A DNA stretch of 64,000 bases, from sequence record OR539218.1; one strand, given 5' to 3'. Position numbers and translations under genes: made by a program. The notes beneath the pieces are model-generated. The model saw only the letters and a list, made by a program, of their open reading frames with translations, did not search any database and was not told the origin of the DNA. Position 1 is the stretch's first letter, and each line of letters opens with the position of its first letter. Positions 25,410 to 43,819 of this stretch are shown piece after piece. The stretch comes from Escherichia phage vB-Eco-KMB26.

Positions 25410-25796
25410 TTATTCGAGGGAAAGAAGATACTTACTTTGGTAAAACATTCCAGTAATATCATCTATCGTGCTTTGAATGGCTGGAGGCATTTCTTTATAA
25501 ATGCTGTTAGATTGGTCTAGTATGCGATCAATCATTTTAATTGTGTCGGTAGGAAGTTTACTGGCATCTGGAATTGAAGGCGTGTATTTTCTACCAGAAT
25601 ACCCCAAATATTGCTCACCAAATTTATCAATCAAATCTGGCAACTCGGAGAAAATAAAATCGTATGCTTTGTGTCTAGCATAACTTTTAGTTTCAAAATG
25701 TGCAGAATGAAAATAAGCTTGTGCAGCCATTAATAAACCTAAGTATTCATCTGCCTTTGAAGGTTTTCCACTTTGTGAAAAGTCGCTGAATTTCAT
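25410..25796 (-). CDS. Hypothetical protein at the rI.-1 position
   Basis: 128-aa ORF immediately downstream of rI. Confidence 0.55.
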
Positions 25797-26086
25797 TCAG
25801 TCTCCAATTTAATGTTCATAATTCTAGCGTATGATTGTGCCATCTCCGCGCCTCGCTCTATACATTCAAAATCGGAAGAGCACGGGTCATTTTTATAAGT
25901 CGTTCGCATAAAACTATAGAACTGTTCAGATGATTCTACGCTTTTATTTTCAAAAAGCATATAAACGTGTCTAATACCAGATTCCATAAATTTATCAAAA
26001 TGAGGATCGACATTCGCTTCAATTGGTGGAGATAAAGCAAATGCTAATCCTAGCATGGCAAATAGTGCCGTTGCTTTTAAGGCCAT
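25793..26086 (-). CDS. rI: Lysis-inhibition regulator rI (periplasmic, signal-anchored)
   Basis: 97 aa; MALKATALFAMLGL... matches T4 RI. Confidence 0.88.
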   Translation of the reverse strand: MALKATALFAMLGLAFALSPPIEANVDPHFDKFMESGIRHVYMLFENKSVESSEQFYSFMRTTYKNDPCSSDFECIERGAEMAQSYARIMNIKLETE

Positions 26087-26098
26087 AAAGGCCTCCTA

Positions 26099-26311
26099 TC
26101 ATTTTTGTCCTGTATTTACTTTATGCCGATGCACGGCCTTAACTTTATCAAGGTATTTTTCAAAATTTCGCAATCTAGTATAGTCTGCCGGAGATTGGTT
26201 GAGTGATACTTCTCGACGCAAAGCTGAAATGATATTTCCAACTTCCCTACGAATTTCATCTAATTGAAGCACAGTAAGATTGCGAAGTTGCTTTTCAGTT
26301 AATTGTAGCAT
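26099..26311 (-). CDS. Hypothetical protein at the rI.1 position
   Basis: 70-aa ORF. Confidence 0.55.
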
Positions 26312-26353: not shown

Positions 26354-26935
26354 CTAACCGAGCTTTTTAGTTAATTCATTCCAATGCTTTCTACACAAAG
26401 AAACATAAATTTCATCACCAATACAGATTTGATTACCTTCTTTAACTGGTGTTCCATCTTCCATTAATCGAGCTGTCATAATAGCTTTTTTACCACAATG
26501 ACAAACTGCCTTTAGTTCAATAAGTTTATCTGCAATCGCCAAAAGTTCTTTAGAACCTTCAAATAATTTTCCAGCGAAATCAGTCCTTAGCCCATAAGCC
26601 ATAACAGGAACATTATATGTATCAACAATTCGACTTAATTGATGCACCTGTTCAGTTTTTAAAAACTGAGCTTCATCTACAAATACACAATGAATATCTT
26701 TTTGTGCTTCAGCCCATTTATAGAACTCAAAAATATCCATATCATCCGTAATAATATTCGCTTCCTGCTTAATTCCAATGCGAGAAACGACTTCACAGAC
26801 AGAATCGCGAGTATCAATAGCAGGCTTAAGAACTAATACACCCATTCCGCGTTCTTTATAATTATGTGCAGCAGTCAAAAGAGAAGCAGATTTTCCAGCA
26901 TTCATTGCTGCGTAAGTAAAAATTAAACTCGCCAT
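26354..26935 (-). CDS. tk: Thymidine kinase
   Basis: 193 aa; P-loop AAMNAGKS; C-terminal Zn-binding Cys pairs; matches T4 Tk. Confidence 0.92.
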   Translation of the reverse strand: MASLIFTYAAMNAGKSASLLTAAHNYKERGMGVLVLKPAIDTRDSVCEVVSRIGIKQEANIITDDMDIFEFYKWAEAQKDIHCVFVDEAQFLKTEQVHQLSRIVDTYNVPVMAYGLRTDFAGKLFEGSKELLAIADKLIELKAVCHCGKKAIMTARLMEDGTPVKEGNQICIGDEIYVSLCRKHWNELTKKLG

Positions 26936-27509: not shown

Positions 27510-27727
27510 GTAACCTTTAAGCAGTATTCTTCTACATGCTGTTTACGACCTTTCTTATCAATAAAGGTATATTCAACGAATGTTCCAATGTAGTCTTTAT
27601 CTACATCATGCGGACTATTAATTGGACATTTAGTACGGCAAATGCGTTCCCATTGACGAATAATTACTGCCTTATTCTTTGGGTCATATGGATGTGGATA
27701 ATGTATATTCATAATAACGGTTCCCAA
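27500..27727 (-). CDS. Hypothetical small protein
   Basis: 75-aa ORF. Confidence 0.5.
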   Translation of the reverse strand: MGTVIMNIHYPHPYDPKNKAVIIRQWERICRTKCPINSPHDVDKDYIGTFVEYTFIDKKGRKQHVEEYCLKVTWL

Positions 27728-28176
27728 TCAACAATCACAATTTCTAATTTAGAGGAATATGTATCTAAAATCCCCTCAATAATATCCCAGTTCCCTTTAC
27801 CTATGCCTGCACCAATCCTAGGCATATAGATTGTAGGTTTAATCAGTTTATTTTCACCAAACTCATTTAATTCTAACATACAATTCATTAAAGCGGAATA
27901 CTCAAAATTTGGCCCTGGTTGAAATTGAGTATAAAGGTTGAAGCAATACGCTTTATGAGTCCTAAAGTATTTTTCATAGACTGAGTAAGAACCGAGTTTA
28001 GTTACATCACCCCATTCAGTCTGTAATTTATCAGCTTCCAAAATTTTAGGGAAAGCTTTGGTTAATTGACCCGCTACGCCTGAACCCATAGTATGAAAAC
28101 AATTGCATCCATGCGCAATATTTTTACCTTCAGCGAAAAGGGCGACAATATCGCCCTTGATATATTTTACAATCAT
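27709..28176 (-). CDS. Macro-domain-like protein (predicted ADP-ribose binding/hydrolase fold)
   Basis: 155 aa; GDIVAL...HGCNC...MGSGVAGQL and IGAGIGKG resemble macro-domain GDIT...NAAN...GGGVxGAI and glycine-rich loop. Confidence 0.45.
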   Translation of the reverse strand: MIVKYIKGDIVALFAEGKNIAHGCNCFHTMGSGVAGQLTKAFPKILEADKLQTEWGDVTKLGSYSVYEKYFRTHKAYCFNLYTQFQPGPNFEYSALMNCMLELNEFGENKLIKPTIYMPRIGAGIGKGNWDIIEGILDTYSSKLEIVIVDWEPLL

Positions 28177-28514
28177 CTAGTACTCAATCCTCGATTATAA
28201 GAATCTACCAAACGGTCAACCATTGAATGACAAGCGGCTTTATCTTTCTCCTCCGCAACTGAACATTCTAAGGTATTCCACTTTTTAGCATATCGTTTTA
28301 ATAATGTATCGTTTTTGTATCTGCTTGATTTATCTCTTTCTCCGTCTTTATATGCATATATTAATTTCTGCGCAAATTCAGCTTGGCATGCTTTATTTTT
28401 CCCACAATAATCTGCCGCAGTGCGATTTACATATTCTCTAATTTCAGTATATGATGTATCTGCTAACGCAGAAAATGAAATTAATCCTATACATAAAACC
28501 AAAATTTTAGTCAT
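28173..28514 (-). CDS. Secreted/periplasmic small protein
   Basis: 113 aa; N-terminal MTKILVLCIGLISFSALA followed by DTSY; 4 Cys. Confidence 0.5.
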   Translation of the reverse strand: MTKILVLCIGLISFSALADTSYTEIREYVNRTAADYCGKNKACQAEFAQKLIYAYKDGERDKSSRYKNDTLLKRYAKKWNTLECSVAEEKDKAACHSMVDRLVDSYNRGLSTR

Positions 28515-29052
28515 TTACTATTTCCAAAAGTTTATTATTTTTAAGGTAATTAGCCTTTTCTAGGACTTCAGAAGCATATTTAGAACCTGCTTTAACATTC
28601 CATCCCGAATTATAAGATGATATTGCTTTTCTTATATCGCCCTTATGTATATTTAACCAATAAGAAAGTTCAATGTACGCCCAGGAAGCTGAATTGGATC
28701 GTTTATTCAACATTCTTTTTATTTCAGCATCGGTCATATTATAACCAAGTTCCTTAACTCTTGCTCGCATAGTAGGCAAATAATTTTGGAACATTCCATA
28801 AGCGTGATGCTTTGGTTTAGATTTTAAATTAACTCCGCCAGAGCTTTCTTGCCATAAAATAGCAGCCATTATATGACCTAATCCGCTCTTGTGGATATTT
28901 TTGTGTGTTTTATATTTTCCATCCTTAGAAAACTGTTCCCCGAATTGATACGCGTAACGCATGTTATCGAGTTGGACATTACTGAAAGTATGCTCGGAGC
29001 TATGTGCCATCATAGAAATGGCCAATAGACCAGCGAGTAGTGCTTTTCTCAT
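28507..29052 (-). CDS. Secreted lytic-transglycosylase-like (SLT-domain) protein
   Basis: 181 aa; signal peptide; catalytic-type WQESSGG, GMFQ and SYNSG motifs. Confidence 0.55.
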   Translation of the reverse strand: MRKALLAGLLAISMMAHSSEHTFSNVQLDNMRYAYQFGEQFSKDGKYKTHKNIHKSGLGHIMAAILWQESSGGVNLKSKPKHHAYGMFQNYLPTMRARVKELGYNMTDAEIKRMLNKRSNSASWAYIELSYWLNIHKGDIRKAISSYNSGWNVKAGSKYASEVLEKANYLKNNKLLEIVND

Positions 29053-29059
29053 GTTTACC

Positions 29060-29521
29060 TCATTGAGTTTTAATTACTGCTTTAGAAGCCTTTCCTGGTA
29101 AACGACGACTGTTGATAATTGCCATCCTACATTGAAGTGACGGGTCTTTGAACTTCTCATTAGGTTTACAAACTGTAAATCCAAGCCAAAGATTTCCATC
29201 TGTAATTTCTAAACGTCCAGGACGATATTCAACTCCATCAATAAAATCCTCATCAATGTCAGGACGCGGAGGCATACTCAGGAATTCATTAACTTCTAAA
29301 ACATGGTCTTTTATTTTATGGAATAATTCAAAAACATATGTCTCATCAATCTCCCGTTGAATTGCACGATCAAGAAGATGTTGAGAATATTTTAGATGAA
29401 ACGATGAGACCCCTGCTGCTTTTGATGCCTCACGAATCTCATTGTTAATTTGACGAAACTCCGACTCAAAGTGACGACGAAGCTTATTTCGACGGATAAA
29501 AACTTCTGTATTGATAGTCAT
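29060..29521 (-). CDS. regB: Sequence-specific mRNA endoribonuclease RegB
   Basis: 153 aa; MTINTEVFIRRNKLRRHF... matches T4 RegB. Confidence 0.92.
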   Translation of the reverse strand: MTINTEVFIRRNKLRRHFESEFRQINNEIREASKAAGVSSFHLKYSQHLLDRAIQREIDETYVFELFHKIKDHVLEVNEFLSMPPRPDIDEDFIDGVEYRPGRLEITDGNLWLGFTVCKPNEKFKDPSLQCRMAIINSRRLPGKASKAVIKTQ

Positions 29522-29539: not shown

Positions 29540-29578
29540 GATAGAAAAATTATACCACAGTCAAGAGGAAAAGTAAAC
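29540..29578 (-). promoter_or_regulatory. Early promoter upstream of regB (-35 GTTTAC, -10 TATAAT)
   Basis: Minus strand aactGTTTACttttcctcttgactgtggTATAAT. Confidence 0.6.
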
Positions 29579-29859: not shown

Positions 29860-30125
29860 TAGTATTTTTCCTCTGGTTGGAACACAGCACGACAAGCCCA
29901 CATACTGGCTTCTTTGAGTTTCGTTTTAGCAATAGCTAACTGATCGAGGCTTTCAGCATAATTCTTCGCGAGTTCAAAGTCTTCGCAATTATCTAGTGCT
30001 TCCCAGAATTCATCATATAAAGCATCAAAGATAAGTCCTAAACGAACTTCAGCGTCTTTAATAGCATTTACTTTACCGATTTTTTCGTCGGTATGTGGCT
30101 TATAACCTTTAATATCTTCAATCAT
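29859..30125 (-). CDS. Hypothetical small acidic protein at the vs.4 position (T4 vs.4 is the anti-CBASS protein Acb2; identity here not verified); ORF track extends to 30161
   Basis: Start MIEDIKGYK after GAGGA RBS. Confidence 0.45.
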
Positions 30126-30339
30126 ATTTGACTTCCTCACCAGTACATAAATCGTATTCAACTAAACGAATAGGTTCATGAATGCCATATCCCTGAACAG
30201 AAATTTCTGTCGTAGGATAAATTCCACTAATATCACCCATATTCCACGCTTCATTAAATTGCTGTTCGCCTGAATTACTAAACCACTCGGCGAAAGCATT
30301 TAGCACATCTTCAGAACCTTCAATAATTATCTTTGCCAT
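30118..30339 (-). CDS. Hypothetical small acidic protein
   Basis: 73-aa ORF. Confidence 0.5.
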   Translation of the reverse strand: MAKIIIEGSEDVLNAFAEWFSNSGEQQFNEAWNMGDISGIYPTTEISVQGYGIHEPIRLVEYDLCTGEEVKYD

Positions 30340-30707: not shown

Positions 30708-31088
30708 TCAATTAGAAAATAAATTTATCCAAGATTGTTCTTTAATTAAAAATGGCTCAGAATCATATGCCATTAAACTCTGTGTGATTAGTCCTTTAAA
30801 AGGCCCATCAATAAATTCCATGGTAAAATATGGAATTTTATTCATTAGCCGTGCATTAGGAGCCGTGCACAAAACTCTGCATCCTTTGAATACGCCTTTT
30901 TGTAATTTGTATTGCTTGGGACAAAATTCGCTCAAAATGTTATTTTTTGCCAAAATTTCAAAATGATTCACCAATTTATTTTTAATAGTTTTTGGCGAAA
31001 AATAAAGATATTCGAAAAGCTGAGTGTCTGTCATCATTGCATTCCGATTACGAAAAACTGTGGACGAGTAATACCACCAATGCAACAT
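30708..31088 (-). CDS. Hypothetical protein
   Basis: 126-aa ORF. Confidence 0.5.
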   Translation of the reverse strand: MLHWWYYSSTVFRNRNAMMTDTQLFEYLYFSPKTIKNKLVNHFEILAKNNILSEFCPKQYKLQKGVFKGCRVLCTAPNARLMNKIPYFTMEFIDGPFKGLITQSLMAYDSEPFLIKEQSWINLFSN

Positions 31089-31573
31089 TTAATATTACAG
31101 CAGCAGTGTACAGTGTCAATATGGACACTATAAATCTTATCCATATCAGGAGATTTGACAGGCTCATCAATTATATACAAAATTCGCGAAAGTGATAAAC
31201 CTCTGAACTTGCTTCCTTTATTACCAATAAAACTGCGCACAGAATCAGTAAATAAACGAAAACGTATATCATCATTAGAATAACGCGAAAATTCCTTTTT
31301 AATATTATCTGCGGAAATTTTAGCGTAAGCTGAAGTATTAGAAAGAACAATAACTGTTCCACCGTCATACAACCAATTAGCGGCAAAATTAGTTACTGCA
31401 GTTGATTTACCAGATTGACGCCCACCATCTAGTCGAAGTGTACAATACTGTTTAAGTAAGTCTTCAAATGGCGGGATATATTCGTTTTTACAAATTTCTT
31501 CTACTCTAGCATCAGAATGGTGTGTAAAAGCATTCATCAGGGATAGATAAGGACCAGTTAAAAATGTTCTCAT
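31034..31573 (-). CDS. P-loop NTPase-like protein
   Basis: 179 aa; Walker A GGRQSGKST; Walker B-like ILYIIDE. Confidence 0.55.
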   Translation of the reverse strand: MRTFLTGPYLSLMNAFTHHSDARVEEICKNEYIPPFEDLLKQYCTLRLDGGRQSGKSTAVTNFAANWLYDGGTVIVLSNTSAYAKISADNIKKEFSRYSNDDIRFRLFTDSVRSFIGNKGSKFRGLSLSRILYIIDEPVKSPDMDKIYSVHIDTVHCCCNIKCCIGGITRPQFFVIGMQ

Positions 31574-31719: not shown

Positions 31720-32136
31720 TTAAATGTAAATATTTTTGCCGTAATACTTATACCAGTGTGGCTTCATTAAAATTTTTTCATCGAGTCGTTGTTGACTCAA
31801 CTTAATAGCTGATTTGCATGGATTATAATCATTTTTCCATTCTACTGGAATATCGCTGATGTCAGGAACTTCAGTATCTTTTATACTGAACCCGCGTTTT
31901 AAGCATTCCGTTATAATGTCCGATTGACGCTTTCGCAAAAATTCTAACTTATCGTAAAAGAAAGTAACATGACCAGAACCTAAAATAAATTTAGAAGATA
32001 TTTTAAAATCTTTAACGCGCTTACCGTTTGCCACATGCTTACGAACTATACCAAAAACACGCGGCAATTCACGGTATTCTGCGATTAAATGTTGATCAGC
32101 AAGTTCAGATACTAAAGTCAAATTAATACGAGTCAT
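31720..32136 (-). CDS. denV: Endonuclease V (pyrimidine-dimer DNA glycosylase)
   Basis: 138 aa; [17 protein letters not shown]... matches T4 DenV. Confidence 0.92.
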
Positions 32137-32195: not shown

Positions 32196-32726
<531 letters not shown>

Positions 32727-43228: not shown

Positions 43229-43819
43229 ATGCTCTTTACATTTTTTGATCCGATTGAATATGCGGCCAAAACGGTGAATAAAAACGCGCCGACTATTCCT
43301 ATGACAGATATTTTTAGAAACTATAAAGACTATTTTAAACGCGCTCTTGCGGGATACCGCTTACGTACTTATTATATCAAAGGTTCACCACGCCCGGAAG
43401 AATTAGCAAATACTATATATGGAAATCCACAGTTGTATTGGGTTTTATTGATGTGTAATGATAATTATGACCCGTATTATGGATGGATTACTTCACAAGA
43501 AGCAGCTTATCAAGCATCTATACAAAAATACAAAAATGTAGGTGGAGACCAAATAGTATATCATGTGAATGAGAACGGTGAAAAATTTTATAATTTAATA
43601 TCATACGATGATAATCCATATGTTTGGTATGATAAAGGTGATAAAGCTAGAAAATATCCTCAATATGAAGGAGCACTTGCTGCTGTTAATACGTATGAAG
43701 ATGCTGTTCTTGAAAATGAAAAACTTCGTCAAATAAAAATAATAGCAAAATCAGACATTAATTCATTTATGAACGACCTTATACGTATAATGGAGAAATC
43801 TTATGGAAATGATAAGTAA
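43229..43819 (+). CDS. 53: Baseplate wedge protein gp53
   Basis: 196 aa; GGAGG RBS; position before gene 5. Confidence 0.85.
   Translation: MLFTFFDPIEYAAKTVNKNAPTIPMTDIFRNYKDYFKRALAGYRLRTYYIKGSPRPEELANTIYGNPQLYWVLLMCNDNYDPYYGWITSQEAAYQASIQKYKNVGGDQIVYHVNENGEKFYNLISYDDNPYVWYDKGDKARKYPQYEGALAAVNTYEDAVLENEKLRQIKIIAKSDINSFMNDLIRIMEKSYGNDK

Follow-up and report, generated by a model that had tools for sequence, protein, structure and literature searches.

Within the 64,000-nucleotide stretch of the Escherichia phage vB-Eco-KMB26 genome analyzed here (OR539218.1; hereafter the window), two adjacent open reading frames (ORFs) on the minus strand correspond to the T4 genes vs.1 and vs. The first very probably encodes an exported, catalytically competent family-1 lytic transglycosylase (LT) whose substrate would be the infected cell's sacculus and whose role would be accessory and dispensable. 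The second, annotated as a modifier of the host valyl-tRNA synthetase (ValRS), is itself probably exported, judging from its N-terminus and those of its homologues. On balance, the evidence favors a co-transcribed and probably translationally coupled pair of exported proteins, with Vs.1 as an accessory periplasmic LT and Vs as its envelope partner. A more specific proposal, put forward here tentatively, is that vs.1 and vs form a conserved two-protein periplasmic module in which Vs would be an exported, disulfide-bonded LT accessory, instead of or besides being the ValRS modifier known as tau. The pair as such is already known: both are named T4 genes, and the SLT likeness of vs.1 was published in 2006. 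New here are the vs.1-vs junction of -8 to +3 nucleotides in 55 loci, the presence of vs.1 in 34/34 loci seeded with Vs, and the export-like N-termini together with four conserved Cys in 45/45 Vs proteins. The flagged finding is in itself ordinary, and the modest lead lies in setting this exported pairing against the ValRS annotation.

The vs.1-vs gene pair

The 2-kb region around the gene pair is 99.5% identical to that of Yersinia phage PYPS2T and has matches in 656 phage records; the window belongs to a T4-type phage (Tequatrovirus). Both ORFs of the preliminary description, which was made from the sequence alone, exist with the coordinates and on the strand given below. ORF 28507-29052 is 100% identical to T4 ORF 61.4, that is, vs.1, and its product has matches in 2013 phage records. 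ORF 28173-28514 is T4 vs, annotated "valyl-tRNA synthetase modifier": it occupies the same slot between vs.1 and tk.4 as in T4 and matches PHROG 1256 (E 5e-40). Its 113-residue product is 97% identical to a 115-residue homologue, the length of T4 Vs, the gap being a 2-residue indel within the signal peptide. The T4 gene names, the published SLT likeness and the annotation of the 113-residue ORF to a cytoplasmic ValRS function had escaped the preliminary description. Two label errors are propagated in the databases: Vs is often named "valyl-tRNA synthetase", the enzyme itself, in GenBank/UniRef, and some Vs.1 homologues carry the name of the upstream neighbor, "Endoribonuclease RegB". The two genes and the signals around them are as follows.

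28507-29052, minus strand: vs.1 coding sequence, 181 amino acids, predicted exported single-domain LT-like protein of the SLT/GH23 type
28173-28514, minus strand: vs coding sequence, 113 amino acids, predicted exported four-helix protein with four conserved Cys
28507-28514, minus strand: 8-nucleotide overlap of the vs start and the vs.1 stop (ATGACTAA), read from the sequence
29058-29061, minus strand: Shine-Dalgarno GAGG of vs.1, 5 nucleotides 5' of the ATG and overlapping the regB stop codon, read from the sequence
29549-29577, minus strand: promoter-like TTTACT-17-TATAAT with extended TG, 5' of regB, a consensus match only

The 8-nucleotide overlap suggests translational coupling of vs.1 and vs, and the promoter-like site is likely to be the early promoter of a regB-vs.1-vs-tk.4 unit. 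In T4-type phages the pair would thus be co-transcribed and probably translationally coupled.

Vs.1 as a predicted lytic transglycosylase

The SLT-type motifs reported in the preliminary description (WQESSGG, GMFQ, and SYNSG) are all present, at residues 67-73, 86-89, and 146-150 of Vs.1, respectively. In a hidden Markov model (HMM) search, the check proposed there, Pfam PF01464 (SLT) matches residues 61-154 with an E value of 1.4e-5 and 25.1 bits, above the gathering score of 21.3. An AlphaFold2 (AF2) model built from a 32-sequence alignment (predicted local distance difference test, pLDDT, 88.9; predicted template modeling score, pTM, 0.83) displays a low-confidence N-terminal helix, corresponding to the signal peptide, followed by a compact helical domain. 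This domain has the all-helical fold of goose-type lysozymes, and LTs head the Foldseek list, the best matches being MltD, Slt, and a GH23 chitinase. The SLT assignment thus holds for both profile and predicted fold. Sequence identity to LTs of known structure is 13-21%, and a search of PDB sequences with the Vs.1 profile returned only a weak match to a g-type lysozyme (E 0.3). The predicted active-site motifs are listed below.

28834-28854, minus strand: LT motif I, WQESSGG; Glu69 (codon 28846-28848), the predicted catalytic residue, precedes Ser70; from conservation among 32 homologues
28786-28797, minus strand: LT motif II, GMFQ (residues 86-89), a variant of G-L-M-Q, with G86, F88, and Q89 invariant
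28603-28617, minus strand: LT motif III, SYNSG (residues 146-150), a variant of A-Y-N-x-G, with Y147, N148, and G150 invariant

Conservation was assessed in an alignment of 32 homologues sharing 40-100% identity. Besides the invariant residues of motifs II and III, W67, E69, G73, and Y159 do not vary, and S70, S71, and S146 are at least 90% conserved. Helix 59-70 of the AF2 model has Glu69 at its C-terminal end. Neither an Asp nor a Glu is conserved between E69 and G86 in this alignment, a sequence-level argument by which Vs.1 resembles LTs rather than the hydrolytic goose-type lysozymes. Vs.1 therefore passes every sequence and fold test for the SLT/GH23 family-1 enzymes, its chemistry being predicted. 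That Vs.1 is an inactive, peptidoglycan-binding relic of an LT domain is very improbable: although the Pfam score is only modestly over its cut-off, the catalytic Glu-Ser and both substrate-binding motifs are invariant down to 40% identity, which would not be expected of a dead enzyme. The SLT similarity of vs.1 was noted in a comparison of six T4-like phages that cited earlier PSI-BLAST matches (Nolan et al. 2006, PMC1524935), and some GenBank records already name vs.1 "SLT domain-containing protein".

Predicted export signals and architecture of Vs

Signal-peptide-like N-termini, attributed to both proteins in the preliminary description, are indeed recognized by simple rules for the n-, h- and c-regions. 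Both carry a basic n-region, a hydrophobic core, and small residues at positions -3/-1.

28999-29052, minus strand: predicted Sec signal peptide of Vs.1, residues 1-18, MRKALLAGLLAISMMAHS, cleavage after AHS and before SEH (n/h/c rules)
28461-28514, minus strand: predicted signal peptide of Vs, residues 1-18, MTKILVLCIGLISFSALA, cleavage after ALA and before DTS (n/h/c rules)
28386-28406, minus strand: first Cys pair of Vs, Cys37/Cys43 (CX5C), at the turn between helices 1 and 2, present in every full-length homologue
28230-28265, minus strand: second Cys pair of Vs, Cys84/Cys95 (CX10C), at the turn between helices 3 and 4, present in every full-length homologue with a spacing of 8-10 residues
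28185-28226, minus strand: C-terminal helix motif of class I Vs, SMVDRLVDSYNRGL, residues 97-110, with 11/14 positions invariant and the other 3 at least 90% conserved

For Vs.1, the predicted mature protein starts at residue 19 with SEHTFSNVQLDNMR. The first 20 residues, modeled with a pLDDT of about 55, precede the confidently folded domain. All Vs.1 homologues keep a hydrophobic N-terminus despite sequence divergence, and the n/h/c features are retained in those of five distant lineages (Aeromonas, Acinetobacter, Klebsiella, Felixounavirus, and Kuttervirus phages).

For Vs, the predicted mature N-terminus in the window is DTSYTEIR. The N-terminal segment of the family is poorly conserved in sequence and retains its features: each of the 45 distinct full-length Vs proteins begins with a positively charged n-region, followed by 13 or more uncharged residues in a row, and has small residues at -3/-1. 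A canonical lipobox, LSGC, is found in 4/45 homologues. These are class II proteins (ALSGC, Cys16; L044:3049-3375, L045:2495-2821, L048:3049-3375, and L059:3049-3375), and in this lineage they are predicted to be lipoproteins rather than soluble periplasmic proteins. A lipoprotein assignment was considered for the window's own Vs and rejected, VLC not being a lipobox and Cys8 not being conserved.

The preliminary description counted four Cys in the 113-residue ORF. Four are indeed conserved in the mature part (37, 43, 84, and 95), but the total is five, with the additional, non-conserved Cys8 in the signal peptide. Across the family the spacing varies (CX5-6C and CX8-10C) and no His is conserved, a pattern consistent with two helical hairpins, each closed by a disulfide at its turn. 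The AF2 model of Vs, of lower confidence (pLDDT 61), indeed comprises four helices arranged as hairpins 20-37/41-59 and 70-84/89-110. No significant match to Vs was obtained in Pfam and NCBIfam. The neighboring periplasmic antiholin RI was examined as a possible paralogue and discarded, BLASTP detecting no similarity. When produced in the cytoplasm with an N-terminal His tag, Vs (listed at 115 residues) forms inclusion bodies (PMC8076793).

Natural damaged alleles of vs were also encountered. In Dhakavirus vB_EcoM_005 (L009) an in-frame deletion removes both members of the first Cys pair together, and in one IMG/VR phage contig Vs is truncated to 65 residues; vs.1 is intact in both. The coordinates of the damaged alleles are L009:1402-1659, L029:3041-3298, and L047:3049-3246.

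By sequence, Vs proteins form two classes. Class I, to which the T4 protein belongs, ends in the nearly unchanged motif listed above, outside of which its members share 46% identity, whereas class II lacks the motif.

Conservation of the pairing

A first word-indexed homologue search yielded six Vs clusters and a seeming limit to close relatives of T4, and an HMM search of a representative library with the T4-type Vs profile found seven clusters and no homologues beyond them. This apparent restriction had to be revised after inspection of a T4-like phage of Acinetobacter. The ORF abutting its vs.1 homologue encodes a protein with a signal peptide and with Cys at positions 36, 42, 82, and 91, which hhalign matches to the Vs profile with 89% probability (E 2e-6). 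Through tblastn this Acinetobacter homologue is connected to another 368 phage records, among them phages of Salmonella, Klebsiella, Providencia, Serratia, and Aeromonas.

Loci were then collected from IMG/VR with the Vs.1 profile and their ORFs scanned with iterated HMMs. A Vs-family ORF starts -8 to +3 nucleotides from the vs.1 stop in 48 of 49 such loci and in 7 GenBank loci from other genera. The exception, L062, was a weak match (32% identity) whose ORFs matched neither profile. Conversely, vs.1 lies immediately upstream in 34/34 loci seeded with Vs, which were gathered by three narrower scans and many of whose contigs overlap the Vs.1-seeded set. In one Klebsiella phage the Vs homologue is found 1.2 kb downstream of vs.1. 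A Vs.1 homologue without nearby Vs occurs in three lineages, represented by Aeromonas phage phiAS4, Felixounavirus REP10, and Kuttervirus SenALZ1, while no Vs away from vs.1 was seen in the sampled loci. In this sample the dependence is therefore one-way, Vs never being found without Vs.1 and Vs.1 sometimes standing alone. The order regB-vs.1-vs-tk.4 is kept in Tequatro-, Mosig-, Kagamiyama-, Gapriver-, Dhaka-, and Marfavirus.

The Vs.1 copies without an adjacent Vs from Felixounavirus (L004:2501-3049), Kuttervirus (L012:1953-2570), and a Klebsiella phage (L013:1809-2450) have 2, 4, and 2 Cys beyond the signal peptide, respectively, unlike T4-type Vs.1, which has none. The Felixounavirus copy is encoded just after rIIA/rIIB, about 1.2 kb from a spanin gene.

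Expression and fitness of vs.1 and vs in T4

Both genes were described as early in the preliminary description, and the T4 data agree: vs.1 and vs give early RNA, and their proteins were detected and classed as "middle" (PMC9697503, supplement). In the HIDEN-SEQ transposon screen of T4 (bioRxiv 10.1101/2025.11.20.689424) both are non-essential, with insertions at 30/32 TA sites for vs and 46/52 for vs.1. Mean insertion counts in liquid LB medium are nevertheless low for the pair (26.6 for vs and 22.6 for vs.1) when compared with regB (179), tk.4 (290), vs.3 (652), and tk.3 (767). In M9-glucose, vs is the most depleted gene of the screen (log2 fold change -2.19, adjusted p 0), and vs.1 changes in the same direction (-0.87, p 0.0055, adjusted 0.155); a clean vs knockout gives poor plaques on M9. 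On the wild host CFE299, the figures are -1.20 for vs.1 (adjusted p 0.015) and -1.04 for vs (not significant). Judging from insertion counts and depletion, vs and vs.1 thus behave alike and unlike their neighbors.

A proposed periplasmic module and its alternatives

In the scheme that we propose, Vs.1 would be translated from early transcripts, and its export through the Sec system of the host would yield a mature form of about 18.8 kDa. In the periplasm it would act as a family-1 (SLT/GH23) LT, with Glu69 protonating the MurNAc-beta-1,4-GlcNAc bond (between N-acetylmuramic acid and N-acetylglucosamine) and the cleaved strand end closing to 1,6-anhydroMurNAc. Such action would loosen or reshape the sacculus once the cell has been infected. 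This would be an accessory role, the main lysis step being left to endolysin E and holin T. Mature Vs (11.0 kDa) would be a periplasmic helical protein stabilized by two disulfides and lipid-anchored in some lineages. It would function in the envelope pathway to which Vs.1 belongs and would most likely assist that enzyme, either as a positive accessory or as a targeting factor. Gene identity, the fold with its intact catalytic motifs, the signal-peptide-like N-termini of both families, the strict adjacency, the early RNA with detected proteins, and the dispensability with a common fitness cost are documented here or in the cited literature; we infer the export itself, the LT chemistry, the disulfides, any Vs-Vs.1 contact, and the biological purpose. 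A periplasmic role in the cell wall, one of the possibilities raised in the preliminary description, is the most reasonable reading. By contrast, the role in entry that it also raised is ruled out for the same virion in the case of a protein that is synthesized only after infection and leaves the cytoplasm through the host's Sec machinery. The pairing, the export-like N-termini, and the conserved Cys fit an exported module and not a cytoplasmic ValRS binder; that Vs works with Vs.1 is moderately likely.

If the module exists, T4 would possess, besides E and gp5, a third peptidoglycan-cleaving enzyme, exported by Sec and kept across about 2000 phage genomes, among them those of Felixounavirus and Kuttervirus. 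Its constant neighbor, vs, has the strongest minimal-medium fitness defect in the recent genome-wide T4 screen, and an export-like Vs is hard to square with the textbook role on a cytoplasmic tRNA synthetase. One option would then be that a 50-year-old assignment of gene to function points to the wrong ORF. Alternatively, the ValRS association could stem from a non-exported fraction of Vs or from mixing after lysis, or class I Vs could have gained a second, cytoplasmic job by means of its near-invariant C-terminal helix. Depending on the outcome, an old annotation that hundreds of genomes have inherited would be corrected, or a protein with two locations would come to light.

Several points weigh against the module. 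The signal peptides were judged by simple n/h/c rules alone. The Vs model, which is poor (pLDDT 61), gave no Foldseek match in the PDB with E<1 and retrieved neither Spackle nor RI. Between the two classes (loci L005-L061), Vs proteins average 26% identity and the Vs.1 proteins of the same genome pairs 60%, and in a covariation test no column of mature Vs.1 tracked Vs class I or II; with Vs diverging faster and no class-tracking column, covariation therefore lends no support to a direct Vs-Vs.1 interface. The vs.1 transposon phenotype may be a polar effect on vs, and the minimal-medium defect of the vs knockout fits a role in amino-acid charging as well as one in the envelope. In addition, T4 plaque yield is unaffected by raised LD-crosslinks, which inhibit LTs (PMC11390936).

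The last objection is of a historical nature and leads to the best-surviving alternative. The vs locus was reportedly tied to host ValRS in vivo by McClain, Marchin and Neidhardt in 1975, Mueller and Marchin in 1977, and Marchin in 1980, and this classical work is said to have revealed an in vivo interplay between vs and valS. Vs could then be the cytoplasmic tau peptide that binds and modifies ValRS, its adjacency to vs.1 reflecting nothing but the tight packing of early genes and Vs.1 being an unrelated periplasmic enzyme. The gene is annotated in this sense in T4 and in hundreds of other records, its knockout has a defect specific to minimal medium, a condition in which growth is limited by the supply of amino acids, and partial polarity on vs would account for the weaker effect of vs.1 in M9 (-0.87 compared with -2.19). 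A near-unchanged C-terminal motif in class I would likewise be expected of a protein that binds a highly conserved host partner. The annotation conflicts, however, with the predicted export of Vs, because ValRS is cytoplasmic. In place of the cytoplasmic location that a ValRS modifier calls for, the family is predicted to carry signal-peptide-like N-termini throughout, four of them with a lipobox, and its four conserved Cys, variably spaced and accompanied by no conserved His, fit disulfides better than a cytoplasmic fold. That Vs was never found apart from vs.1 in the sampled loci also argues against chance packing. Moreover, Vs of Salmonella S16-type phages is only about 25% identical to that of T4 and lacks the class I motif, whereas Vs.1 is 73% identical; the ValRS enzymes of Salmonella and E. 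coli are themselves nearly identical. Finally, no sequencing-based mapping of a vs mutation to this ORF was found in the literature within reach, which did not extend to the classical papers. On these grounds the ValRS explanation, in the form that excludes export, appears rather doubtful.

Somewhat less probable still is that Vs.1 serves mainly in lysis or its timing, by weakening or trimming the sacculus in advance and thereby allowing endolysin E and the spanins to complete lysis efficiently, for instance in slow-growing, highly crosslinked cells or after lysis inhibition. Genome position speaks for it, as vs.1 lies between rI (2.1 kb) and e (3.1 kb) and the Felixounavirus homologue beside rIIA/rIIB and near the spanin gene, and so does a fitness cost that is larger in minimal medium and on the wild host. 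Yet expression is early to middle and not late, both genes are dispensable, no lysis phenotype appears in the literature reports, and the insensitivity of T4 yield to overproduced LD-crosslinks mentioned above tells against this role too. A lysis-timing paper on BSPM4 ORF52 proved to be unrelated.

The periplasmic module could also work in the opposite sense, with Vs as an inhibitor or immunity protein directed against Vs.1 or against a different muramidase, for example the gp5 lysozyme brought in by a superinfecting phage. Such pairs are known: Spackle acts on gp5, Tsi3 on Tse3, and Ivy or PliG on lysozymes and LTs. This role is unlikely, and a positive accessory is the more probable one, because the loss of vs.1 is not neutral in the transposon data: insertions in vs.1, which should abolish the enzyme and probably Vs too, are as depleted as those in vs in LB (22.6 against 26.6, with at least 179 in adjacent genes), although losing a toxic enzyme should be neutral or helpful. 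Furthermore, Vs is predicted to be all-helical, which excludes the beta-rich folds of Ivy, MliC, and PliG; Spackle is not matched by the Vs model, poor as that model is; and Vs.1 homologues exist without Vs in three lineages.

Neighboring genes

The minus-strand genes that surround the pair in the window are listed below in the direction of transcription; farther off, the gene of the tail lysozyme gp5 starts at 43803.

32196-32690, minus strand: e (endolysin)
31720-32136, minus strand: denV
Between denV and regB, minus strand: vs.8 to vs.3
29060-29521, minus strand: regB
27709-28176, minus strand: tk.4 (Pfam Macro domain)
Between tk.4 and tk, minus strand: tk.3 to tk.1
26354-26935, minus strand: tk
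26099-26311, minus strand: rI.1
25793-26086, minus strand: rI (antiholin)

The preliminary description placed the pair on the opposite side of the genome from the lysis genes and argued from this position against a main lytic function. That argument fails because e is only 3.1 kb upstream on the same strand and rI 2.1 kb downstream. The holin gene t was not found within the window. The start of tk.4 overlaps the vs stop by 4 nucleotides; its product was recently named AdfM and protects T4 against the DarTG2 defense system (bioRxiv 10.1101/2025.11.20.689424). Compared with the T4 reference, the window differs as follows: e directly follows denV, ipII and ipIII being absent from this position, the gene in the vs.5 position (30118-30339, minus strand) encodes 73 instead of 58 amino acids, and that in the vs.8 position (31034-31573, minus strand) encodes 179 instead of 219.

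Comparison with known systems

Vs.1 can be compared with several groups of peptidoglycan-cleaving enzymes. Unlike the family-1 LTs Slt70, MltC, MltD, MltE/EmtA, and MltF, it is phage-encoded and early, and consists of a bare 163-residue domain with neither lipid anchor, LysM domain, nor superhelical module; its motif II reads GMFQ instead of GLMQ. The enzymes T7 gp16, phiKZ gp144, phi6 P5, lambda R, T4 gp5, and T4 E act either from the virion at entry or late by way of a holin. By contrast, Vs.1 has its own predicted Sec signal and is non-structural, early, and not holin-dependent, and its gene is separate from those of E (32196-32690) and gp5 (starting at 43803).

As for Vs, it resembles Spackle (gene 61.3) in being a small early T4 protein with a signal peptide and a helical prediction, non-essential and encoded beside a muramidase-like gene. 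No similarity in sequence or in fold to Spackle, Ivy, MliC, PliC, or PliG was detected for Vs (model pLDDT 61), these searches placed it in no known inhibitor family, and the transposon data do not suit a simple inhibitor of a toxic Vs.1. With tau, the ValRS modifier, Vs shares the gene by annotation and a similar size (11.0 kDa for mature Vs against about 10 kDa for the tau peptide). The two differ in that the function of tau needs a cytoplasmic protein, whereas the Vs family looks exported, disulfide-bonded, and locked to an LT gene.

A last group comprises the small, "specialized" secreted LTs, which include EtgA, IpgF/IagB, VirB1, and P19. EtgA, of a type III secretion system, requires a small partner, being activated by the rod protein EscI. 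Vs displays no detectable similarity to EscI or to any protein of known structure, and its role as a partner is one that we infer; moreover, we know of no trans-envelope machine that assembles early in T4 infection. In size and architecture, these small secreted enzymes such as EtgA are nevertheless the closest to Vs.1.

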